Virus record (IMG/VR): IMGVR_UViG_3300030419_006251
Span: 128,001-192,000 of that record
Length of the DNA: 64,000 nucleotides
From: a virus
Taxonomy: Duplodnaviria > Caudoviricetes
Strand: one strand, 5' to 3'
The position numbers and the translations under genes are program-made. Below are positions 40,754 through 64,000 of this stretch, one piece after another. Each line of letters begins with the position of its first letter. Positions within the stretch are counted from its first letter, which is position 1. The notes below the pieces were generated by a model that did no database searches, had not been told where the DNA came from, and was given only the letters and a program-made list of their open reading frames with translations.

Positions 40754-40884
40754 GCCCATAGTGGGTGTATTACTCGCTCCAACACCATACTATCCCCTCT
40801 TTAATTTACCTTTTTAAAGCTCACCTCCCTAAAGGTCCGGCTCGTTAGAGGCATAGAACCGCAACTACCATTTGCACTATGGAC
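40754..40884 (-). ncRNA. Candidate structured RNA A (131 nt, multibranch with pseudoknot)
   Basis: Closing stem GTCCATAGTG/CACTATGGGC and internal stems CGGTTC/GAGCCG, ACCTTT/AAAGGT, GGTGT/ACACC. Two G:U pairs favour the minus strand. Confidence 0.6.
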
Positions 40885-53820: not shown

Positions 53821-54248
53821 GAATCCGGCTTGACTTTACACGAAAATCCGCTACTTTTAGCATATCCAGTCAACATATCGGAATATTGCGCAGTTGCTCC
53901 TTCAGCGGTGGACGCCCCAATATCTAAATGCAATTCAATATTGGCTTTTGGACAATCTTCATGTATTTTAAGCGCAAAATAAATTGTTTTTTCGACTTCA
54001 GCCATAATTCTAGACAACAGTACTTTAAACTTTTTTGCGCTAGGCTTATTTTTTTGTATAAAATACCTTCCACCCTCAAGTTTTCCACCATGAAGACATA
54101 TAGCAGTAGCGAACACACAGTGTTTTTTTGTTAAAAAAGAATCAGTACCAATATACACAGTACCACCAGCTTTCGTGTGGTTTTCGACAACTTTAATTAA
54201 GTCCTTATACTCTATTTCATATCCCGTACCGGTATACCAAATACTCAT
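53781..54248 (-). CDS. RNase H-like YkuK/DUF458-family protein
   Basis: VYIGTDS, FATAI, IELHLDI, KPDSWASSSIAD. Confidence 0.75.
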   Translation of the reverse strand: MSIWYTGTGYEIEYKDLIKVVENHTKAGGTVYIGTDSFLTKKHCVFATAICLHGGKLEGGRYFIQKNKPSAKKFKVLLSRIMAEVEKTIYFALKIHEDCPKANIELHLDIGASTAEGATAQYSDMLTGYAKSSGFSCKVKPDSWASSSIADKHSK

Positions 54249-54266
54249 ACTATTAATATATAGCGT

Positions 54267-55307
54267 TTAAACGGTCATGTCAACAGTATTTTCAAGTTCT
54301 TTAAGGGCGTCTTCCATATTTTTTTCAACATCTTCCATTTCCGCATCAAAATTAGCATCCGCCACAGCGCCCTCGCCGGTTATCATGCCTTCTTCTTCAT
54401 TAGGCAACTCAGTTTCAATATCCCCTTCTCCCGCTGCAGCCGCGGCTGCATCGGTATTTTGTGCGTCAATGGTGTCGTCGTCTGGCATAAACTCATCCAT
54501 ATCCATTTGCTCTTTTATTCCAGCTATTTTTCTCCATCGGCGGAGAGTTGACTCTTCAATCGGCTCATCAGTAGCTACAGGAATTCCAGGAACGCCGGAA
54601 ATTTTTCCATCTTCATGGTCACTTAATGTATCAACACCAAAGACTTCCTTATCAGAAGACTTAGCTTCTTCTTTCAATAACTGTAATAACTCTTGTCTGA
54701 TTATTTGTTCAAGCGTTTTCTCTTTCTGTGTTTTTGGGATGGACTCGGTTGCAGCTGCGCGGACGGCTTCAGGCGTCTCTTCGCCTCGCTCAAAGGCATC
54801 CATGGCTGACTTCATATCTCTAACCTCACTCGGAGATCGACCGCCGGGGAGCCAGCCGCCCATTTTATAGTCGGCGGACCGATACCGACGGGAACGCAGA
54901 CCTGTATCCCCCGTGTCTCCGGTGTCTCCTGTGTCTTGTTCATTCAAAGAATCGACAACGGATTTAGGCCTTCGCTGACCGCGGAAGCGTTGTATGGGTT
55001 CTCCCAATTCGTCGACACCTTCTTTTTCGTGAGGCCCTAGGGATTCGACAAAATGATGTTTTAAACCGGGCGGGTCGATACATCCACCAGAATCAGATTC
55101 GACGCATGTTTGTTCACGGCCGGCCGCCGGTTCTGGCATTGTCGCGGATCCGCCTCGTGCACCCATGCCTTGTGTAAATCCAGCTTCGACGCCGTTACGG
55201 TGCATGCCCGCGCCCCTAGCTTCGCGTAAAATTTTTCTTTTGTTAGCTAATAATTCTTCGCGGATAATTTTTTCTACTTGTTGCCTACGCTTACTTTCTC
55301 TACTCAT
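54267..55307 (-). CDS. Acidic putative internal head protein
   Basis: VEKIIREELL, LEQIIRQELLQLLKEE, LRRWRKIAGIKE; GDT x3 repeat. Confidence 0.55.
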   Translation of the reverse strand: MSRESKRRQQVEKIIREELLANKRKILREARGAGMHRNGVEAGFTQGMGARGGSATMPEPAAGREQTCVESDSGGCIDPPGLKHHFVESLGPHEKEGVDELGEPIQRFRGQRRPKSVVDSLNEQDTGDTGDTGDTGLRSRRYRSADYKMGGWLPGGRSPSEVRDMKSAMDAFERGEETPEAVRAAATESIPKTQKEKTLEQIIRQELLQLLKEEAKSSDKEVFGVDTLSDHEDGKISGVPGIPVATDEPIEESTLRRWRKIAGIKEQMDMDEFMPDDDTIDAQNTDAAAAAAGEGDIETELPNEEEGMITGEGAVADANFDAEMEDVEKNMEDALKELENTVDMTV

Positions 55308-55340
55308 TGAATAGTATGCCTCCGTTGCATATAATTAGTT

Positions 55341-55481
55341 TTATTTTAGTCTTTTGGCAATAATTGCTAGCAAAATTATAACAGAAGCCTCGAAGCCAAT
55401 AGCCCAGTAGCCAAAAAGGATTAACGCAAACCACAACGCGTCACGCAATAGCGGGTTAATAACTTGGTCCAAGGGCTCCAT
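55341..55481 (-). CDS. 46-aa membrane protein (below the ORF-track cutoff)
   Basis: Manual translation: MEPLDQVINPLLRDALWFALILFGYWAIGFEASVIILLAIIAKRLK*. Confidence 0.5.
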   Translation of the reverse strand: MEPLDQVINPLLRDALWFALILFGYWAIGFEASVIILLAIIAKRLK

Positions 55482-55795
55482 TAATTAAAGCCTAGGTCTA
55501 TTATTTCATCTCCAGGCACCATAAAATACTGGCCTTGAAGATTGACAACATGATATCTACCATCTTTATCTGGTTCAAGCGGTAATACATATACTTCCGT
55601 CCCCCGGCTAATGGTAATAATGCGGCGCTTTTCCGGTGCAAAGTAATATCCGGGCCCGCTTCCACTTATTACTTGATAGGGTACAAGATCGGTACTACCC
55701 TTCCTCTTAGAACCAGCTTTCATAAGGTTCTTGATATAATCATTAATATCATATGATCCGGATATTGACAGTGCCACTTGTTTATCTCCAATCAA
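55481..55795 (-). CDS. Hypothetical protein
   Basis: 104-aa ORF in a co-oriented run. Confidence 0.55.
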   Translation of the reverse strand: MIGDKQVALSISGSYDINDYIKNLMKAGSKRKGSTDLVPYQVISGSGPGYYFAPEKRRIITISRGTEVYVLPLEPDKDGRYHVVNLQGQYFMVPGDEIIDLGFN

Positions 55796-55816
55796 AAGTA
55801 ACTATAACGCTAAGCA

Positions 55817-56080
55817 TCAAATATCATATTTCTGCGCATTTTTCTGTGCAGCCTTAGCCACCAAGTCTAGCGAATGATCTGCATACCAGTGTTGGCCAAC
55901 CTTATCCATTCGCTGAATCAGATATAGTTCATGCGCGAAATAGCTATGCGTATGTGGCGGGTCTGGCCTCTCTATTATGCGCAATACTATACCTAGGCCG
56001 GCATCCTTAACAATATCACCATCGGCATAATAGTCAAACCACTTAACCAAATCGCCTACATCTACCTTCTCACTCTGCAT
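55817..56080 (-). CDS. Small SH3-like hypothetical protein
   Basis: VDVGDLVKW...GIVL; promoter TTGTAA-17-TATATT at 56118-56090. Confidence 0.6.
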   Translation of the reverse strand: MQSEKVDVGDLVKWFDYYADGDIVKDAGLGIVLRIIERPDPPHTHSYFAHELYLIQRMDKVGQHWYADHSLDLVAKAAQKNAQKYDI

Positions 56081-56112
56081 ATCACCTACAATATAACATA
56101 TTATTCATATCT

Positions 56113-56445
56113 TTACAATTTTTTCTGGGAATTTTTTGGCAACTTGGCCCTCGACAATAACTTAAGTTCTTTACGAAGGTATAGCCCGGGCTTTATATCT
56201 CTATCTAACCACTTCACTTTAAGATATATGTTATTCCTAACCTCGATTACTATACCTGCACCATCTATAATCCTTAAGTCTTCCGGAATCGGATCGACAT
56301 ACTGCACTAAATCGCCTACTCTAATCAGTTCAAGCTGCACTTCCGGTTCTTTTACTTTCACTCTTTTAATTAGCGAGAATGTAAAAATCTGGAAAAATGG
56401 CTTAGGGATCGCGAATGTATCTGCGCGCAGCTTAAGAATCCCCAA
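56113..56445 (-). CDS. Small SH3-like hypothetical protein
   Basis: IRVGDLVQY...GIVIEV; true start uncertain. Confidence 0.5.
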   Translation of the reverse strand: MGILKLRADTFAIPKPFFQIFTFSLIKRVKVKEPEVQLELIRVGDLVQYVDPIPEDLRIIDGAGIVIEVRNNIYLKVKWLDRDIKPGLYLRKELKLLSRAKLPKNSQKKL

Positions 56446-56459
56446 TGATTCCGCGGACT

Positions 56460-57035
56460 TAGATTCCCCGGAGGGGGAGGGGGGGTACCTGGTAAGTGCT
56501 TGTTATTGCTTGGGTTTTGTGTAGCATATACATTGTTATACGGTGTTAAATGTATGTCAAGTCTTTGTTAGTACTGTGTAGTATATTCTTTTACTTGTTC
56601 TTTACATTTATTCTTTTATTACCCTCGTTAAATGTTTCACTCCTCCGTAACACAGGTTATACCTGCCATATGCTGTCGCATGTATCACATACTGTAGCAT
56701 ATATTCTTTTATACCCCTCGGCGTATACCTTTTGATACGGTAGATGCGCCGCGTATACTTTATGATACGGTGGCTTGTAGCATGTGTCGCATGTATTTGT
56801 TACACTGATGCATTTATTACCCTCGCTCATATTGGGCTTGTAACCTGCGTTATCGTGTCGCATAAATATACATTAAATGTTACACCGTATACTTTATGAT
56901 ACGGACAATAAATGACTTGACAAGCAAGGCGTATATGTACTAGTTCCTTCCCCTGGTTTGCTCCCTTCTCATTAAATGTTAATACATGTATACAATGTTG
57001 CAACTATTATACGATCAGATGGTAGTACCCCTAAG
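56460..57035. repeat. Non-coding region with several interspersed short repeat families
   Basis: (C/G)CGTAT-N8-ATACGG x3, TTA(T)TAC(C)CCTCG x3, TGTCGCAT x3, TTAAATGT x4; G-run at ~56471-56485. Confidence 0.7.
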
Positions 57036-57039
57036 ACAT

Positions 57040-57318
57040 TTATACTTCATGTAGTACGGCACTGAGGGATTGCATTAAAGCTACTGCAAGTTGTTCACTC
57101 TCTGTAGACAATGTAGACAATCCTGTTACACTTTTATTATCATTGGCCTCGGTGGTTTTCCGTTGCAACTCATTGAGCCCGTTAGCTAGTGTCACAAAGG
57201 TGGCAGACAAAGCGAGGTTGTCACCGAATGCCATGGCTCTGCAAGTGTGTCGCTCAAAGAGTGTAACATTATTTATAACTGGAATACCCTTGATCATATC
57301 CTCTTCTGTGTAATACAT
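57040..57318 (-). CDS. Hypothetical protein
   Basis: RBS-like AGGAGAG upstream; 92 aa. Confidence 0.45.
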   Translation of the reverse strand: MYYTEEDMIKGIPVINNVTLFERHTCRAMAFGDNLALSATFVTLANGLNELQRKTTEANDNKSVTGLSTLSTESEQLAVALMQSLSAVLHEV

Positions 57319-57693
57319 TTACTTTATTCTCTCCTTTATACCCTCGATGTGTTTGCATTTACGACGATAGCTATACCCAATGCAAGTACAACTGAAAAAA
57401 ATCTGGCGCGAATCGCTCTGATACTCGGTCACGATATATTCACTCCCTCTCGACCCCATCACCTTCCACTCTCGACCCTCGCGCGGGGCGGCTGGCTGCT
57501 TCTCTCGGCGCTTCACCACCATGTATCGGGGCAAGTCCTCAAAGGTGGTGCTCGGAGGCACTGAGAGCCATTCTGAGCCGCTGACTGCATAAGTGCCTGA
57601 TGGTAGTCTCGTGATGCACGGAGGCCAGTCAACCTCGATGGGGCTGACCGGCGGAGTGTGCAAAGGTTTATTATCAATCGCAGTCAATGGCAA
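57319..57693 (-). CDS. SWIM zinc-finger protein
   Basis: FSCTCIGYSYRRKCKHI (CxC-x7-CxH). Confidence 0.72.
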   Translation of the reverse strand: MPLTAIDNKPLHTPPVSPIEVDWPPCITRLPSGTYAVSGSEWLSVPPSTTFEDLPRYMVVKRREKQPAAPREGREWKVMGSRGSEYIVTEYQSDSRQIFFSCTCIGYSYRRKCKHIEGIKERIK

Positions 57694-58918
57694 TAATCCT
57701 CTCGTTGGTCTGGAAGTACGGACGCTGGGCGTAATACTTAGTCGTCATCCACATACGCTGACACTTGGATGGAATGGGCTTGGGAGCCATGAGATCCGTC
57801 AGGACGATGTGACCGTCGAACCCGTGATCGTTGACATACTTGGTCGGAGGGTTGAAGTCGGTGCCGCCGTAGCGCACACGGACCCACTTGCGCTTCTCGT
57901 TACGCTTCCACACATGAATAAAATCTTCTGCAACCTCGGTATCAAAGGGGATTACCGTGAACTCAGCTAGCTCGGCCAGCTTGTTCAACTCAGAGAAGAA
58001 CGCGGCCAGCATGCCATCATCAACAGAACCGGACTGATCGATGCTGATCGCGATACGAGCTTGACGACGGACCTTAGAGCCTGCATGGATGTAGGGGTAA
58101 CGCTTATTCAGGCGCTTCACCGTGCGAGTCTTGTTGGACCGTTGAGAGGTTTTAATGAAGTACCGCAGCACTTTGCGCCAATCAACCTTAGAGGCGATAC
58201 GGTCAAGGATGTCGCGACGGCACTCACCAGACACGGAACCCCAGCTATTGGCCTTCTGAGCCTCTTCTGCAGCCTTCTTGACTGATTCCTTTAGACGCTC
58301 CTTCGCGATGTCCTGAGCGGCCCCCTGGCCCTCGCCCCAGCCACTATGATCATCAAAGCTGTCGCCAAGCTGATCGGATGGGTCGCCGGATCCTCCACCT
58401 TCGCCGTCGCCCTGCTGTTCGTCCTGCTCTTCCTGCTTCTTCTTGAGAGCAGCAAAATAATGCTCCGCGCTCTTGCCCTTTTCCATATCCGCAAATGGGC
58501 CCTCACCGGGCATGCAGCACTGTTCGGGCAACTCGCCGACAAGGTGAGAGTTGATCGCAAGATCCGTGGCGATGTTCCACATTTTAGACATGCCACCATC
58601 GGGCAAACGACCAGTGACATGCTCAAAGACAAGATGATAGAACTCATGCTTGAGCACTCCAGCACGCTGGACATCTGGCAGCTTCGCAAAGAAGGCCGGA
58701 TTGTAGAGCATTTCAAAGTGACCATCATCAGTCACGCGAACACCAGCAGTCGGGATCGCGCCCGATGCCTTCTTGTTGATGCGTCGAGAGAGGGCCGCAA
58801 AGAACGGCTCGTCAACGAGTAGACGCGCGGTGTGACGATTCAAGTCAAACTCTGCCACTGCAGCGGCTAGCTCCTCGGGAGTCATTTCGGGCGCGGGGGA
58901 TGAAACGGGCTGGGTCAT
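57674..58918 (-). CDS. DUF2201-type zincin metallopeptidase + vWA-like protein
   Basis: IPTAGV, LKHEFYHL (HExxH), WNIATDLAIN, acidic Gly linker, IDQSGS (MIDAS DxSxS), GGTDF, LTD. Confidence 0.88.
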   Translation of the reverse strand: MTQPVSSPAPEMTPEELAAAVAEFDLNRHTARLLVDEPFFAALSRRINKKASGAIPTAGVRVTDDGHFEMLYNPAFFAKLPDVQRAGVLKHEFYHLVFEHVTGRLPDGGMSKMWNIATDLAINSHLVGELPEQCCMPGEGPFADMEKGKSAEHYFAALKKKQEEQDEQQGDGEGGGSGDPSDQLGDSFDDHSGWGEGQGAAQDIAKERLKESVKKAAEEAQKANSWGSVSGECRRDILDRIASKVDWRKVLRYFIKTSQRSNKTRTVKRLNKRYPYIHAGSKVRRQARIAISIDQSGSVDDGMLAAFFSELNKLAELAEFTVIPFDTEVAEDFIHVWKRNEKRKWVRVRYGGTDFNPPTKYVNDHGFDGHIVLTDLMAPKPIPSKCQRMWMTTKYYAQRPYFQTNERIIAIDCD

Positions 58919-58941
58919 AGAAATCTCCTTGCTATACTATA

Positions 58942-58996
58942 AATATAGCATGGTGAGGCGAAAAGGTCAAGGCTCAAGCTGTCAAGAGAATGTCAA
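58942..58996 (-). promoter_or_regulatory. Early-type promoter 1 with an upstream 11-bp direct repeat
   Basis: TTGACA-5-TTGACA-9-TTGACC-17-TATATT. Confidence 0.85.
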
Positions 58997-59295
58997 ATGT
59001 CCTCTTCACACGCTCTCGCCTCCTTATCAAGCTCTGCGAGGTCTTCAGCGACATCGGCGACGGTCATGGGCCGGTCCTTTCGTCGCTTGGCAGCTTCTCG
59101 ATCCAACCTCCCCCATCGACGCGATCCGTTTGGATGCTCGCACAAGTGGAGATCGGTGATTCCAAGGGCTGTGTAGCGTTTCAGGGCCGTCTGAGTGGCT
59201 CGGAGGGTGTCGGGACGGGTTAGCACTGTCTCGTACCCTGAGAGCCGTCCTGCGGCGTCTAAGTTGACATGCGTGCGGCTGATATAGTATTTCAC
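58993..59295 (-). CDS. Hypothetical protein
   Basis: Probable GTG start at 59295, overlapping the stop of an upstream small ORF. Confidence 0.5.
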   Translation of the reverse strand: MKYYISRTHVNLDAAGRLSGYETVLTRPDTLRATQTALKRYTALGITDLHLCEHPNGSRRWGRLDREAAKRRKDRPMTVADVAEDLAELDKEARACEEDI

Positions 59296-59387
59296 TATCG
59301 GCCCTCGTAGAAAGCGCAGACGGGGATCCCGACGAGTGCGGTGCTCCAAAGAGCGATGATGATGGATGATGCGATGATTGCTGTCAT
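59295..59387 (-). CDS. 30-aa hydrophobic peptide
   Basis: RBS AGGAGG; MTAIIASSIIIALWSTALVGIPVCAFYEGR*. Confidence 0.5.
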   Translation of the reverse strand: MTAIIASSIIIALWSTALVGIPVCAFYEGR

Positions 59388-59424
59388 GATATGCCTCCTA
59401 TGGCGATTGAGTAAAGGTTTAATA

Positions 59425-59500
59425 TGGTGGGCCCTGTCGGATTTGAACCGACGACTATCCCGTTATGAGCGGGGCGCTCTTACCACTGAACTAAAGGCCC
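59425..59500 (-). tRNA. tRNA with CAU anticodon (probably Ile2, lysidine type; Met not excluded)
   Basis: GGGCCTT/AGGGCCC acceptor stem, loop CTCATAA, CCA. Lacks the initiator GGG/CCC anticodon stem; resembles ileX-type tRNAs. Confidence 0.88.
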
Positions 59501-59504
59501 GGAA

Positions 59505-59580
59505 TGGTGGGTCAACTGGGACTCGAACCCAGAACCTACGGCTTAAAAGGCCGGTGCTCTACCCGTTGAGCTATTGACCC
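59505..59580 (-). tRNA. tRNA-Lys(UUU)
   Basis: Canonical cloverleaf, loop CTTTTAA, CCA. Confidence 0.95.
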
Positions 59581-59582
59581 GA

Positions 59583-59668
59583 TGGTAGCTGCGGCGGGAG
59601 TCGAACCCGCATGCTCATTGGAGCGAGAGATTTTAAGTCTCTTGTGTCTACCGTTCCACCACGCAGCC
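59583..59668 (-). tRNA. tRNA-Leu(UAA)
   Basis: Class II cloverleaf, loop CTTAAAA, long variable arm, CCA. Confidence 0.95.
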
Positions 59669-59677
59669 AAGGTTTAT

Positions 59678-60745
59678 TTACTGCTGGGACTCTCCAGTCA
59701 ATAGTTCGACAAGATAGCCACTGACGGATGTACCATCTGCGGCAGAGGACTGGTGAAGCTCAACAGTATTCTGGATCTCACCGTTGCCCAGAACAACCCA
59801 CAGCTTCATGGCTACCTCGGATGGCAGCGTGACGAAATAGTTAGCAAGGTTCTGTACCTGCTCGGCGGGCAGAGCCTCTGCGAAAGCTGCGGTAGCCTCC
59901 ATCTTCTCGACTAGTGCGCTGTGATCGTTGATCGTGAAATCACTGGTGCGGTCAATCTCACCCTTGACCAAAATATCCTCGACCGTCACCTGACGGGAAT
60001 AGTTGGTGAAGAAGTCCTGCAGTGCAACGGCAGCTTCAAAGCCAACAAACGCTGCAGCGAGGTTAAAGATCGTACCCGCGTCTGCGTCCTCACCAAGGAG
60101 ATCCGCGCCGGTCGCTGCCTGATTCAGGCGATCCCAGGAACGACGAGAAGGGTATACCTTGTTCGGCTCAAAATCGCCGGTGTGCTCAAGGTGATTACGG
60201 TTCTGATTGATGAAATCCCAGACCAGACCATCAACCTCGGTCTTGGCCCAATCAAGCCAGTCCTCGTGGGAAGGCTCGACATCGAAGACCGTGTAGCGGT
60301 CAAGCTCCGCAGGATCCATTTCGCCGACCTGATACTGTGCGCCGTGCTCGCCACCGTTGACGGCTGCGACAATGATGGTGTCAGCGTGGAGGCTGAAACC
60401 GGCCAGCTTGCGACTGTCGGTCAACTCAAAGATGCCTTGACGGACCTCGGGAGTCGCACGGTCAACCTCATCGAGGAAGAGCACCACAGGCTCATCACAG
60501 GCAGTCTTGAACCACGCGGGCGGGTTCCAAGTGGTGACAGCACCGTCAGTGCTCGGAAGGCCAAGAAGATCGCCCTCAGTCATCTGAGAGGCGCGGCGCT
60601 CCACAACCGGGAGTCCGAGATCGCCCGCCAACTGGTAGACAACCTGAGATTTGCCCACACCGTGACGGCCACGGAGCAGCACGGGAAACCGTGCAGCGGT
60701 GACATGAGGGACGATAGCGCGAAAGGTCTTGAAATCAACTGCCAT
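59678..60745 (-). CDS. MoxR/AAA_5-family ATPase
   Basis: GRHGVGKS (Walker A), LFLDEVDR (Walker B), VAAVN, MDPAELDRY, PSRRSW. Confidence 0.9.
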   Translation of the reverse strand: MAVDFKTFRAIVPHVTAARFPVLLRGRHGVGKSQVVYQLAGDLGLPVVERRASQMTEGDLLGLPSTDGAVTTWNPPAWFKTACDEPVVLFLDEVDRATPEVRQGIFELTDSRKLAGFSLHADTIIVAAVNGGEHGAQYQVGEMDPAELDRYTVFDVEPSHEDWLDWAKTEVDGLVWDFINQNRNHLEHTGDFEPNKVYPSRRSWDRLNQAATGADLLGEDADAGTIFNLAAAFVGFEAAVALQDFFTNYSRQVTVEDILVKGEIDRTSDFTINDHSALVEKMEATAAFAEALPAEQVQNLANYFVTLPSEVAMKLWVVLGNGEIQNTVELHQSSAADGTSVSGYLVELLTGESQQ

Positions 60746-60796
60746 GATAGGACTCCTTAGTCGAGGGGGCGAGGGTTCATCCCTCGCTACATTATA

Positions 60797-60851
60797 AATA
60801 TAGCACAGTGGGGGGAAAAGGTCAAGGACATTCTTGTAAAGAGAATGTCAA
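60797..60851 (-). promoter_or_regulatory. Early-type promoter 2
   Basis: TTGACA-5-TTTACA-9-TTGACC-17-TATATT. Confidence 0.85.
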
Positions 60852-60859
60852 GAAGATGT

Positions 60860-61384
60860 TTAACTTACCAGCGTGAAGGCATCGGCCCGGTCGCTGATCT
60901 CAGAAATCGAGGTTGTAGGCGCGGTTTGAGAAGGCTTAAGAAGTTTAATCCTGAAGCCACCCCAGTCACCATCCCACATGAAGTGGTCGATCACCAGACC
61001 TTCGCCGTGATGCTGATGGCACACAAGCGATCCTATGCCGATGGGCTTGGGACGCTCAGAAATCAGTTCCATGGCCTCGCTGCGCTCGATAGGCTCACCG
61101 TCCAAGAAGACCGTATCGGAGGGCTCAGAAGGGCTCTCAGGGGCCTTAAACACAAAGTCATCCCAGTCGAGGACGAAATCAATCGCGTTGCAGGCTTCGT
61201 GACCAGCCTCGGTCAGATCCCATTCGGGCGGGTGGATGCTGGTTCGCACGGCAAGTCCAGCCAGCACGAGCATATCCAGATGAGCGCGATTCGGCTCAAG
61301 CTCGCCCATGTGCATAAGTGCGTGCCATTCGTCCTCGGTCAGCTTGAGGGCGCGAAGGTCAGAAGTGGTCGGGGTGTCAGTCAT
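60860..61384 (-). CDS. Hypothetical two-domain protein (wHTH-like + SH3-like)
   Basis: WDLTEAG wing-like motif, then IGIGSLVCH...GLVI. Confidence 0.55.
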   Translation of the reverse strand: MTDTPTTSDLRALKLTEDEWHALMHMGELEPNRAHLDMLVLAGLAVRTSIHPPEWDLTEAGHEACNAIDFVLDWDDFVFKAPESPSEPSDTVFLDGEPIERSEAMELISERPKPIGIGSLVCHQHHGEGLVIDHFMWDGDWGGFRIKLLKPSQTAPTTSISEISDRADAFTLVS

Positions 61385-61413
61385 CGGGTAGCTCCTTGCT
61401 CGATTACCCCTGT

Positions 61414-61468
61414 ATTATCTCACAGGGGAGAGGGAAAGTCAATAGAAAGTTTGTCAAGAGAATGTCAA
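61414..61468 (-). promoter_or_regulatory. Early-type promoter 3
   Basis: TTGACA-5-TTGACA-9-TTGACT-17-GATAAT. Confidence 0.82.
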
Positions 61469-61470
61469 GA

Positions 61471-62199
61471 CTACTCGTCACCCTGTTCACGCCAGAACCA
61501 GTAGTCGCGCTTTGCGCCCTTCTCAAAAATATCCACGCTGGCATAATCGAGGTTGGAAGCCGCTTCCCAGCCTGCTGGTGGCGTCGGCACAACATGGGCA
61601 CGACTCAGGATAGTCACCGTGTTCCATCGGCTGGAAGACTGCGTGACTTCGCTCGGGAACGAGAGCACACAAGGTTTATTATCCGTCACTCGACGCGCGA
61701 TGATGGCAGCGGGCCACTTGGCTTTGCGGTGAATCGTGTCCCACTTGATGCCCGTGACGATACACGGAGTCACCGTGCCATACTCATCATGCGACAGGAG
61801 AGTGCCGGGACCGACGCCATGTTCACGCATCGCATCCAACACGGTGCGTCGAGTCTCGACGGTCAGAGCAGCGTAACGCTCACGATCTGCCTTTTGCTGC
61901 GGGCATGTGCGTCGGTTATGTCCGTTCTCCCCGCAATAGCCGCACACGCGGCCTCCGTGGGTCGCTCGGCGACGGCGTTTGCTTTCGCCCGTGATTGGAT
62001 CTTCTCCGATGCGCTTGGCTAGCTTTTCGCGAGTGCGCTGATAGGTATAGTCGTCTTCTGGTCGGGATCCATTCTCGACCTCTTTCCGTAGTCGTTCAAA
62101 GCGGTGAGCCATTTGCTCCGTCAACTTCTCGCAGCTTGCGCGGTTGTGGCCTCGCTCGTAGCAGTGGCCGCATCGAATAGTTCCAGAATAGTTACCCAT
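61471..62199 (-). CDS. Double CCHC zinc-knuckle protein
   Basis: CGHCYERGHNRASC and CGYCGENGHNRRTC (Cx2Cx4Hx4C). Confidence 0.8.
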   Translation of the reverse strand: MGNYSGTIRCGHCYERGHNRASCEKLTEQMAHRFERLRKEVENGSRPEDDYTYQRTREKLAKRIGEDPITGESKRRRRATHGGRVCGYCGENGHNRRTCPQQKADRERYAALTVETRRTVLDAMREHGVGPGTLLSHDEYGTVTPCIVTGIKWDTIHRKAKWPAAIIARRVTDNKPCVLSFPSEVTQSSSRWNTVTILSRAHVVPTPPAGWEAASNLDYASVDIFEKGAKRDYWFWREQGDE

Positions 62200-62244
62200 G
62201 TAAAATCTCCAGTGTCAGAGGGTTCAACTCGTTCTTACCCTATA

Positions 62245-62299
62245 AATATAGCCGATATAAACGAGGAAGTCAAGGTTAAAGTTGTAAAGAGAATGTCAA
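62245..62299 (-). promoter_or_regulatory. Early-type promoter 4
   Basis: TTGACA-5-TTTACA-9-TTGACT-17-TATATT. Confidence 0.85.
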
Positions 62300-62309
62300 G
62301 AGAGGTTAA

Positions 62310-62485
62310 AGAGTGAGTCCGGTCGATGATCGCTGTCCTTGCCGCGTCTTCCTCACCAGCTTTGTTTTAACTCCCTCGCGGGTTCGCACGCGCATCTACC
62401 GTGTTCGGTGACTCTCGCCGTGCAGTGGGTTCATTCAAAGCGTTGAACCCCACCTTTAGTTTACTATTTCGACCGGACTCACTCT
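62310..62485 (-). ncRNA. Candidate structured RNA B (176 nt, closed by a perfect 17-bp inverted repeat)
   Basis: AGAGTGAGTCCGGTCGA (62310-62326) and TCGACCGGACTCACTCT (62469-62485); internal hairpins with GNRA loops (GGC-GAGA-GTC, CCC-GCGA-GGG). Confidence 0.65.
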
Positions 62486-62493
62486 AGAAAGGT

Positions 62494-63327
62494 TTATTTT
62501 ACTTTTCGCGCTGCTTTAAGGTGGCGTTCCTCGATAATCACGGGGCGTGCCCCACCGACCGGCAACACGCTATACTTCTTCGCGCCACGGGCTGCGCTAG
62601 TCACTGGTGCAGCGTCGGTCTTGATGACAACGCAAGGCTTATTTCCAGTGCCCCAACGGGCGCTAGAGGGCGCGGAAGCCCTAAGAGCGACAAATGACCC
62701 TGCCGCGTATTTCGGGGCGCTCAGAGTGGCCTCAATGACCTTCTGGGCGTACTTGTTCTCGACCATCTTACGGTACTGCTTTTGGGTCGGAACGCCATCG
62801 GCCAGCACCTTTGTGACAACACCTTGAAAATAGCTTGTCGTCTGGTAGTAACGCGCGGCGATGACAGCGCGGTCACGCGGAGACACACCCTTCTCGTCTG
62901 GCGAGGTATAATCAGTCGCCCATGTAGCTGCTGCAGCCATGGCCTCATCACTGTTTTCGCGCTCGATCTTCTCAAGAATCTGTACCTGCTTGGGACTGAG
63001 ATCACGCCCACCCTGTACCTGTAGGCTCAGACTCATCACAAAGCGGCTAGCCCATGCATCATCGCTTACACGCTCTGACAGTGCGCTCAGACGCTTGATC
63101 ATGGTGCCGCCGCGCTTTGCTGCCTCGGCCAGCTTCTCGGCGCTATAGCGGTCCTCAAGCTCTCTAACGCAACGCGCTCGGCCAGAGGTCAGGCGACCTT
63201 TGCTCTTATAGTAGTGCTGCAAGCTCTCGCAGAACTGACGATCCCGCTGTGAGAGCGGGCGGGCGAGAAGAGCGATGAAGCGGTCGGCGTAAGTCAGACG
63301 GGGCATAGAATCTCCTTGGTTACGCAT
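62494..63327 (-). CDS. Hypothetical protein
   Basis: RBS AAGGAG; two similar LSxR/KQxxxLE helical repeats and an SH3-like C-terminus. Confidence 0.7.
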   Translation of the reverse strand: MRNQGDSMPRLTYADRFIALLARPLSQRDRQFCESLQHYYKSKGRLTSGRARCVRELEDRYSAEKLAEAAKRGGTMIKRLSALSERVSDDAWASRFVMSLSLQVQGGRDLSPKQVQILEKIERENSDEAMAAAATWATDYTSPDEKGVSPRDRAVIAARYYQTTSYFQGVVTKVLADGVPTQKQYRKMVENKYAQKVIEATLSAPKYAAGSFVALRASAPSSARWGTGNKPCVVIKTDAAPVTSAARGAKKYSVLPVGGARPVIIEERHLKAARKVK

Positions 63328-63329
63328 AT

Positions 63330-63384
63330 AATATAGCCTATGCGCGGGCAGAAGTCAAGTCAGGAAATGTCAGGGAAATGTCAA
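63330..63384 (-). promoter_or_regulatory. Early-type promoter 5
   Basis: TTGACA-5-CTGACA-9-TTGACT-17-TATATT. Confidence 0.82.
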
Positions 63385-63590
63385 ATCGTAAAATCAATGA
63401 TTGCAACTCCTCTTTCGGGCTGCTCATCTTCATCGACTTTATGCATGGGCGATTCATAATCGCGTGGATCGTGGAGCGGTTCGATGGGATCGGGGGCGCG
63501 TAGCTGCAGTGGCGGCTGTCCATCTGGGTGCTCGCGGCGCATAAGGTCGAGGATGACACTGATCGGAAGGGTCGGATGCATATGATTCAC
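63381..63590 (-). CDS. Hypothetical protein
   Basis: RBS AAGGAG; 69 aa; preferred over the overlapping frame 63338-63559. Confidence 0.65.
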   Translation of the reverse strand: MNHMHPTLPISVILDLMRREHPDGQPPLQLRAPDPIEPLHDPRDYESPMHKVDEDEQPERGVAIIDFTI

Positions 63591-63605
63591 TCCTTGCTTG
63601 CCTAT

Positions 63606-63660
63606 AATATATAGTATTCTGGGGCTGAAATCAACCCTTTTCTTGTAAAGGATTTGTCAA
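63606..63660 (-). promoter_or_regulatory. Early-type promoter 6
   Basis: TTGACA-5-TTTACA-9-TTGATT-17-TATATT. Confidence 0.8.
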
Positions 63661-63828
63661 CGCCTGCAAGAGCCCGCCAGTACACCATCGCTTGACACCA
63701 GTATCAGCAAAACAAATCAGATATTGATCGGTTCCTTCTGAAACCTTTAATATGATACCGGGCGGCTGACTGCCTAGTCCTCGACTCCACATCGCCAAAT
63801 CGCCTACCTTAAATCTTCTATTTCTCAT
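63631..63828 (-). CDS. Small SH3-like hypothetical protein
   Basis: FKVGDLAMW...PGIIL; ATGA coupling to the upstream ORF. Confidence 0.55.
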   Translation of the reverse strand: MRNRRFKVGDLAMWSRGLGSQPPGIILKVSEGTDQYLICFADTGVKRWCTGGLLQALTNPLQEKG

Positions 63829-64000
63829 GCTGCAACCTTTGTTTTAAGAATCTCGCACTCATACATGAAGTCATCCCATGTCTTCTCAACCCATTCGCCA
63901 AAGATGCCGTATAGCTCTCCTGCTGTCATCTTTCGCAGCTTTTCATGATGCCACTCGGGAGGTTCGACAGCAGCGTCTTCCTCGATGCCGCTACGGTCGT
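63825..64000 (-). CDS. Partial hypothetical protein (5' end outside the window)
   Basis: Open frame ...DRSGIEEDAAVEPPEWHHEKLRK...KVAA* ending at the TGA at 63825-63827. Confidence 0.5.
   Translation of the reverse strand, partial: DRSGIEEDAAVEPPEWHHEKLRKMTAGELYGIFGEWVEKTWDDFMYECEILKTKVAA

Follow-up and report, generated by a model that had tools for sequence, protein, structure and literature searches.

Covariation analysis points to a conserved pseudoknotted RNA family behind early genes of uncultured T4-like phages

Background

A survey of the IMG/VR virus collection yielded 8,495 unnamed candidate structured RNAs with an average length of 67 nucleotides (nt) (PMC10690425). Here we describe RNA B, a structured RNA predicted on the minus strand of a 64,000-nucleotide stretch of phage DNA (the window), which comprises bases 128001-192000 of the 200,760-bp IMG/VR virus record IMGVR_UViG_3300030419_006251, rated complete by CheckV. 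The candidates of the survey, as well as those in the Weinberg/Breaker lists, were likewise found through covariation, lie between genes in uncultured phage DNA and have a complex fold. With a length of 125-185 nt among its members, and five helices plus a pseudoknot, RNA B is larger and more intricate than the average candidate of the survey.

Small stable RNAs of phage T4 (species 1 and 2) were described decades ago. The nearest precedent in kind for RNA B is provided by T4 rnaC and rnaD, which are of similar size (139 and 119 nt); these small stable RNAs are expressed late, are encoded in a transfer RNA (tRNA) cluster, and their function is still unknown (PMC9697503). RNA B, in contrast, is situated in an array of early promoter-like sites, no tRNA genes were found adjoining it in related phages, and it has no counterpart of the tRNA-like T-arm of rnaC. 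A functional analogy can be drawn with the put RNA of phage HK022, which is about 70 nt long, folds during its transcription into two stem-loops directly after the promoters and acts alone (PMC9378689). Both RNAs belong to a phage early region and are independent of any specific downstream gene, whereas RNA B is pseudoknotted, placed after a gene, of the greater length given above, and has no terminators in view.

Two further RNAs come to mind because of their dimensions: phi29 pRNA (about 174 nt) and 6S RNA (about 180 nt), in both of which a closing helix joins the 5' and 3' ends. 6S RNA is a rod with a central bubble, and pRNA belongs to phi29-type packaging motors. RNA B is akin to both in size and closing helix, and matches neither of the corresponding Rfam models. 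A first-pass annotation of the window, made from the sequence alone, had described RNA B as 6S-like in length but branched rather than rod-shaped. The branched character is borne out by the covariation-backed fold, a branched junction with a pseudoknot, but the likeness in size is coincidental, as neither a 6S model nor any other Rfam model matches. RNA B is missing from complete close relatives of the phage (see below), and hence cannot be a core packaging part as pRNA is.

Results and Discussion

Covariation and fold of RNA B

Comparison of 30 distinct homologous sequences indicates that RNA B is a genuine, conserved and intricately folded non-coding RNA of uncultured, marine T4-like phages with genomes of about 200 kb. 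In the final alignment of these sequences, 91.3% of the cells at modelled pairs are indeed paired; shuffling lowers this share to 63.4%, and sliding of the partners to 32-43%. Compensatory changes were found in 32 of the 34 modelled base pairs. For a set of 13 distinct sequences, standard pairs filled 94.5% of the pair cells and 18 of the 34 pairs had compensatory changes, values that were attained in none of 500 shuffles. The pseudoknot is a 6-bp H-type interaction, in which the loop of hairpin P2 (L2) pairs with a strand about 75 nt downstream. It is fully paired (6/6) in 27 of the 30 members and is realised by 12 different sequence pairs, for example GUCACC/GGUGGC, GUCUCG/CGAGAC and GCCUAU/AUAGGC. 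Both the pseudoknot and hairpin P6 were left out of the model used for aligning, yet both covary; the helix of P6 occurs as CGC/GCG, UGC/GCA, GGC/GCC or CCC/GGG, and is extended to as many as 8 bp in one member (L208). The near-invariant 10-nt loop of P6 (GGYRAGGACA, or G-R-Y-R-A-R-R-A-C-A with all variation counted) is invariant at five positions across the 30 sequences and shows only transitions at the other five, a count that includes sequences found via a neighbouring protein gene, independently of the loop itself.

The overall fold, which is well supported by these comparisons, is a junction closed by the long helix P1 and enclosing P2 with the pseudoknot, P3, P4 and P6 (Table 1). The compact, branched and tertiary-folded non-coding RNA proposed in the first-pass annotation is thus supported by the covariation of P1 to P4 and of the pseudoknot in the 30 homologues. 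The perfect 17-bp closing repeat, hairpins P2 and P4 on the minus strand and both strands of the pseudoknot are all as first described, being readable in the sequence of the window. The arms of P1 are the sole perfect repeat of such length within 400 nt anywhere in the window, and the helix measures 10-25 bp in other members. P3 and the two sub-hairpins that had been placed in it (GGC-GAGA-GUC and CCG-AACA-CGG) are equally readable, but the sub-hairpins turned out to be lineage-specific, and P3 varies in length and is missing altogether from the short members L143, L209, L200 and L219. The conserved hairpin P6, on the other hand, had been overlooked in the original list of helices. A helix 'P5' (GCG/CGC) suggested by RNAalifold was rejected, as the central CGC pairs with the downstream GCG, giving the covarying P6. 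A K-turn at the base of P6 was also rejected, since the G-A step is missing from the non-bulged strand.

The minimum free energy of the minus strand is -71.7 kcal/mol (z = -6.6 relative to 200 dinucleotide shuffles). The plus strand also has a low folding energy (z = -5.95), and with such similar values the energy alone cannot assign the strand. However, the pairs contain 69 G:U cells against 19 A:C cells when read on the gene-sense strand, and all 30 members lie on that strand; together these observations show that the RNA is read on the minus strand of the window.

Table 1. Positions of RNA B, its structural parts and the flanking genes and promoter-like sites in the window
Feature	Position	Strand	Remarks
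Whole structured RNA (RNA B)	62310..62485	minus	176 nt as bounded by P1; member of a family seen in at least 30 distinct sequences
P1, 5' arm, 17 nt	62469..62485	minus	compensatory changes in 9/9 scored P1 pairs
P1, 3' arm, 17 nt	62310..62326	minus	100% complementary to the 5' arm
J1/2, A/U-rich linker (AUA...UAA pattern)	62452..62468	minus	14 to 21 nt among members
P2 hairpin, GGGUUCA, 10-nt loop L2, UGAACCC	62427..62450	minus	7/7 pairs covary in the wide set
Pseudoknot 5' strand, GCUUUG, within loop L2	62436..62441	minus	covariation
Pseudoknot 3' strand, CAAAGC, following an A-rich strand	62359..62364	minus	covariation
P3 variable arm, base helix UGCACG/CGUGCG	62385..62424	minus	interior lineage-specific
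P4 hairpin, CCC-GCGA-GGG	62373..62382	minus	GNRA loop here; UUCG or others in some members
Joining strand, UGGUGAG	62352..62358	minus	family consensus UGGCGAG; GCGAG is the most constant portion
P6 hairpin, CGC, loop GGCAAGGACA, GCG	62331..62346	minus	helix covaries; 10-nt loop near-invariant (62334-62343)
Upstream gene p277 (277 residues, no Pfam family)	62494..63327	minus	RNA directly after its homologue in most members
Promoter-like site TTGACT-17-TATATT	63330..63358	minus	in front of p277; consensus match only
Next early promoter-like site TTGACT-17-TATATT	62245..62273	minus	-35 box begins 36 nt past the RNA end; consensus match only
Downstream gene p242	61471..62199	minus	two C-X2-C-X4-H-X4-C zinc knuckles; neighbour

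Members of the family and their genomic setting

The upstream gene p277 encodes a protein with more than 200 metagenomic relatives. In contigs with p277 relatives of 57-69% identity, a copy of the RNA is found at the same place and on the same strand, starting about 10-30 nt past the p277 stop codon. Over all syntenic contigs that carry the RNA the p277 proteins are 41-69% identical, yet about 60 nt of the RNA are almost unchanged. Two interior blocks are nearly constant, whereas the sequence of P1 has been rewritten lineage by lineage with retention of its pairing. Further members were retrieved from metagenomes with an exact core 20-mer from the P6 region. Covariance model R1, run on 80 loci obtained via the neighbouring AAA ATPase gene, added many divergent members, and a profile hidden Markov model contributed three more. 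The copy in the window scores 160.9 bits against R1, a model built with this copy included, and it displays the features by which the family is recognised, i.e. P1, P2 with the 6-bp pseudoknot just 5' of UGGCGAG, and the P6 loop GRYRARRACA.

By position and form, three main groups of members can be distinguished, with a few divergent members placed elsewhere. The first group consists of long forms that follow p277, an adjacency that is kept even at 41-44% protein identity (L221, L244 and L238). The second comprises the short forms without P3, found after a gene of 124-129 residues, and members of the third group are located behind the VWA/DUF2201 gene, itself positioned after the AAA ATPase gene. 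A divergent member on the minus strand of L141 (243-454) has a P1 of 25 bp and an insertion ahead of the pseudoknot strand; it lies directly 3' of a gene (451-1458) for a 335-residue, Dam-like methyltransferase with a DPPY motif, and not of p277. In every member with an examined neighbourhood the RNA starts about 10-105 nt past a stop codon on the sense strand, and an early promoter-like site follows the RNA in those members where one could be read. As the upstream gene varies (p277, VWA/DUF2201, the 124-residue gene, Dam-like methylase), the RNA is a module of its own.

Its distribution is patchy. The RNA is present as a single copy in all six complete or near-complete positive genomes (the genome of the window and five others). 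Model R1 detected nothing in three out of three complete relatives, with AAA proteins 64-71% identical; these complete relatives retain p277 without a detectable RNA. This suggests that the RNA is an accessory element, rather than a core part of replication or packaging. Likewise, no RNA was found downstream of the distant p277 homologues in L002-L004 (30% identity), nor in L137-L140.

A 22-mer from the core had no match in viral contigs, its last two bases being variable among members, and an exact scan with the P1 arms gave no matches in these contigs. With an 18-mer, one true member was found in the viral contigs, together with seven seeded chance matches. Five of the latter (L160, L164, L165, L166 and L167, viral contigs of 67-70% G+C) share the 18-mer CGCGGCAAGGACAGCGAT and apparently represent one related, putatively coding stretch; they do not belong to the RNA family. 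Among 50,697 deposited phage genomes, no DNA similarity to the element in the window was detected, and tblastn with p277 against the same collection gave no match. The phages that carry the RNA form a clade without a cultured member in the collections searched.

Transcriptional context and neighbouring genes

RNA B occupies most of the 294-nt gap between the minus-strand open reading frames of p277 and p242. Its 5' end is 8 nt past the p277 stop codon, in agreement with the originally proposed position between a stop codon and a promoter. The genome has 19 sigma70-like promoter matches (TTGAC[ATC], 16-18 nt, TAWAWT), all of them on the minus strand and none on the plus strand, and 11 of these 19 fall at genome positions 182-198 kb, around RNA B. 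This clustering places RNA B within an early-type transcription array, a setting that fits the early expression suggested in the first-pass annotation. In the window, nearly all small genes of the early type at about 54000-64000 (minus strand) have a TTGAC(T/A)-17-TATATT unit of their own, and a conserved TTGACA..TTTACAAC segment precedes these units.

No promoter-like site could be identified directly ahead of RNA B, and no U-tract terminator was found after P1. The early region has no excess of intrinsic terminator-like sites, of which seven were found against 12 expected. The simplest route of expression would be read-through from the promoter of the upstream gene. The putative promoter in front of p277 is the likely source of a transcript running into RNA B.

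The predicted model of p277 (predicted local distance difference test score 89.7) has a helical N-terminal part and a small C-terminal beta-barrel of the SH3/KOW/Tudor type. The barrel shows weak and partial matches to KOW, Tudor, PWWP and SH3 domains, from which no function follows; those to the KOW domain of NusG/Spt5 are weak (E-values around 0.1-0.6) and stand among many other small barrels. The family of p277 is confined to viruses, and a protein-atlas search for its relatives gave viral hypothetical clusters only. One relative in AFDB carries the automatic and unverified name 'ADP ribosyltransferase domain-containing'. The zinc knuckles of p242 (CGHCYERGHNRASC and CGYCGENGHNRRTC) are of the retroviral CCHC type, a nucleic-acid-binding motif that is unusual in an early protein of a phage. 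In most related phages a p242 homologue lies close to the AAA ATPase gene, whether or not the RNA is present. Since homologues of p242, and mostly those of p277 too, occur in loci that lack the RNA, neither counts as a demonstrated partner.

Many relatives (e.g. L204, 6001-8307, and L137, 1-2422) have a MoxR-like AAA ATPase together with a VWA/DUF2201 protein, whereas the AAA ATPase gene of the window (59678-60745) is followed by three tRNA genes (59428-59668). Tandem SH3-like mini-genes of about 60-80 residues, starting with MKVGDLV... and ending with ...VISESR, were seen in L150 (100-2000) and L204 (9072-9530).

Comparison with known RNA classes

The comparison with Rfam that had been recommended for this element yielded no family match. 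A scan of the whole window with the 4227 models of Rfam 15 gave a transfer-messenger RNA and six tRNAs elsewhere, and nothing at the element. With permissive filters and E-values up to 10, the region 62150-62550 matched only a plant microRNA model, with 14 bits (E = 3.2). As judged against Rfam 15, the RNA B family is one that has not yet been described. When model R1 was run with filters off on the tRNA region of T4 (locus L159), the best score was 7.3 bits, at a position outside rnaC and rnaD.

Several specific candidates were considered and set aside. A retron msr-msd would have closing repeats, and these are present, but there is no adjacent reverse transcriptase and the neighbouring genes vary; no reverse transcriptase domain was found in six open reading frames around the element (59678-60745, 60860-61384, 61471-62199, 62494-63327, 63338-63559 and 63631-63828). 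A sponge for CsrA/RsmA was rejected because there are only two GGA motifs and neither is conserved: L133, L143, L209 and others no longer have the motif upstream of P6, and several members carry GAGAAC or GAAGAC in place of the motif in the P6 loop. Pairing of UGG with the CCA end of tRNA was rejected as well, as several members have UAA or UAG instead of UGG.

A second structured element of the same genome, termed RNA A (window 40754-40884, minus strand), resembles RNA B in architecture. It has a long P1, an A-rich linker, a GGUUC...GARCC hairpin, a middle hairpin and a last hairpin before P1 closes; the loop of the GGUUC...GARCC hairpin pairs with a strand after an A-rich run as in RNA B, and a GCGAG motif is present. 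A homologue in the related genome G007 (L253, about 1500-1620) is 80% identical and has compensatory changes in the last hairpin, from GGUGU/ACACC to GGUAC/GUACC. This last hairpin carries a conserved 13-nt loop, UGGAGCGAGWAAU, unlike the 10-nt P6 loop of RNA B, and RNA A was detected neither by the covariance model nor by the profile hidden Markov model of the RNA B family. RNA A may be a distant relative of RNA B or a convergent scaffold.

Possible roles of RNA B

We propose, with a probability of about one half, that RNA B is co-transcribed with an early gene, released at P1, and acts in trans on a conserved partner through the P6 loop and the UGGCGAG strand. RNA B would be transcribed as a 3' extension of the p277 message from the site at 63358-63330, and an enzyme such as RNase III would cut this early transcript at the long P1 duplex or close to it. 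The excised RNA would accumulate as a stable species of about 160-176 nt and act in trans at an early stage of infection. Through the invariant P6 loop and the adjoining strand it would bind one conserved partner, which could be a host or phage protein or an RNA. Its role would be accessory, in host takeover or counter-defence, rather than in core replication or packaging.

A number of observations weigh against this proposal. In many members P1 falls short of two helical turns, which makes cleavage by RNase III only a guess. Exact complements of the P6 loop elsewhere in the window do not exceed chance, and the constant place just past a stop codon is equally suited to a cis-acting 3'-end element. 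In addition, sampling with an exact 20-mer inflates the invariance of the P6 region, which the set obtained via the AAA gene corrects in part, and the columns of P1 to P4 were aligned by a model that already contained those helices.

A cis-acting element at the 3' end of the upstream early mRNA is the main rival, and in our view an unlikely though serious one. Such an element would halt 3'-to-5' exonucleases or mark a site of processing, thereby setting the level of the upstream message and insulating it from the next promoter unit, with no functional separate RNA product. The start of every member with an examined neighbourhood shortly behind a stop codon, on the sense strand, fits this explanation, as does the failure to find a promoter-like site directly ahead of the RNA; moreover, with no terminator behind the RNA and terminator-like sites not enriched, another 3'-end device would be useful. 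A simple hairpin would suffice for that purpose, however, and some 60 nearly invariant nucleotides, a conserved pseudoknot and a displayed invariant loop exceed the needs of end protection. The gene to be protected also varies among members, and the complete relatives have p277 but no detectable RNA. It is improbable that the nascent RNA instead works in cis on RNA polymerase, as an anti-pausing or antitermination element like HK022 put or Bacillus EAR, possibly in cooperation with the p277 protein and its KOW/SH3-like C-terminal fold. The placement inside early transcription units, between genes and whichever gene follows, would suit such a function, and so would the compact fold with invariant surface nucleotides and the weak, partial match of the p277 barrel to NusG/Spt5 KOW; the put RNA itself sets a precedent for a phage early RNA that alone suffices (PMC9378689). 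Yet the downstream genes have their own promoter-like sites, the count of terminator-like sites below expectation leaves no visible terminator to overcome, and put RNAs are unlike RNA B in both sequence and architecture. The KOW-like matches are weak, and SH3-like barrels are common in this gene array.

The intergenic location in phage DNA, the sporadic distribution over several genomic contexts and a pseudoknotted core in which invariant unpaired nucleotides cluster also bring to mind an undescribed class of self-cleaving ribozymes that would split the early transcript at intergenic positions. Sequences of such a profile have yielded twister, pistol and hatchet. We regard this as decidedly improbable, as no ribozyme model of Rfam matches even at E-values up to 10, RNA B exceeds most small self-cleavers in size, and no cleavage site can be identified from the sequence. 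A ligand-sensing aptamer, whether a riboswitch that regulates the downstream gene or a decoy sequestering a small signalling molecule, would share with many known aptamers a P1-closed junction, a pseudoknot and an invariant core. With its 10-25 bp, however, P1 is very stable and hence not switchable; there is neither an expression platform nor a terminator or sequestering hairpin, a promoter intervenes between the RNA and the next gene, this next gene varies, and none of the riboswitch models matches, which makes a sensor very improbable. The perfect 17-bp inverted repeat, and the occurrence at different sites in different phages, might finally be ascribed to an element acting at the DNA level, such as a miniature inverted-repeat transposable element (MITE) or other mobile element with terminal inverted repeats, or a protein-binding palindrome. 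There is hardly anything to commend this. The first-pass annotation had seen no target-site duplication, and no flanking direct repeat was found here either. The element occurs once per genome in six out of six genomes, and the arms are not conserved in sequence: they differ by lineage yet remain complementary, with G:U wobbles on one strand only and a conserved interior, the opposite of the MITE pattern. A scan with a 16-mer from one arm, covering one genome each of 185,579 bacterial and archaeal species (596 Gb), matched at least 120 loci, close to the chance expectation for single arms by our own estimate, and among the matches listed there was no second arm or interior.

Besides the trans-acting RNA with a conserved partner that we favour, a more specific and rather doubtful possibility is that RNA B is an early weapon, i.e. 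a new self-cleaving or catalytic RNA, or a decoy that uses its invariant P6 loop and UGGCGAG strand to sequester a conserved host factor. The target of such a decoy might be a sensor or nuclease of a defence system, or a part of the machinery for transcription or translation. If RNA B is an early weapon, RNA A would represent the same scaffold with a second specificity.

Conclusions

To our knowledge, few structured RNAs of this size have both a conserved pseudoknot and an extended stretch of unpaired, invariant nucleotides. Those that have been studied mostly proved to be ribozymes, aptamers or ribonucleoprotein scaffolds. The covariation-backed model, with its five helices, pseudoknot and candidate active loop, provides a defined object for biochemistry, and the family model can be used as a covariance-model seed for annotation of the Rfam type. 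The carriers are an abundant but uncultured clade of marine T4-like phages of about 200 kb, in which the RNA is placed among early host-takeover genes. Its presence in only some members of the clade is a pattern typical of accessory takeover or counter-defence functions.
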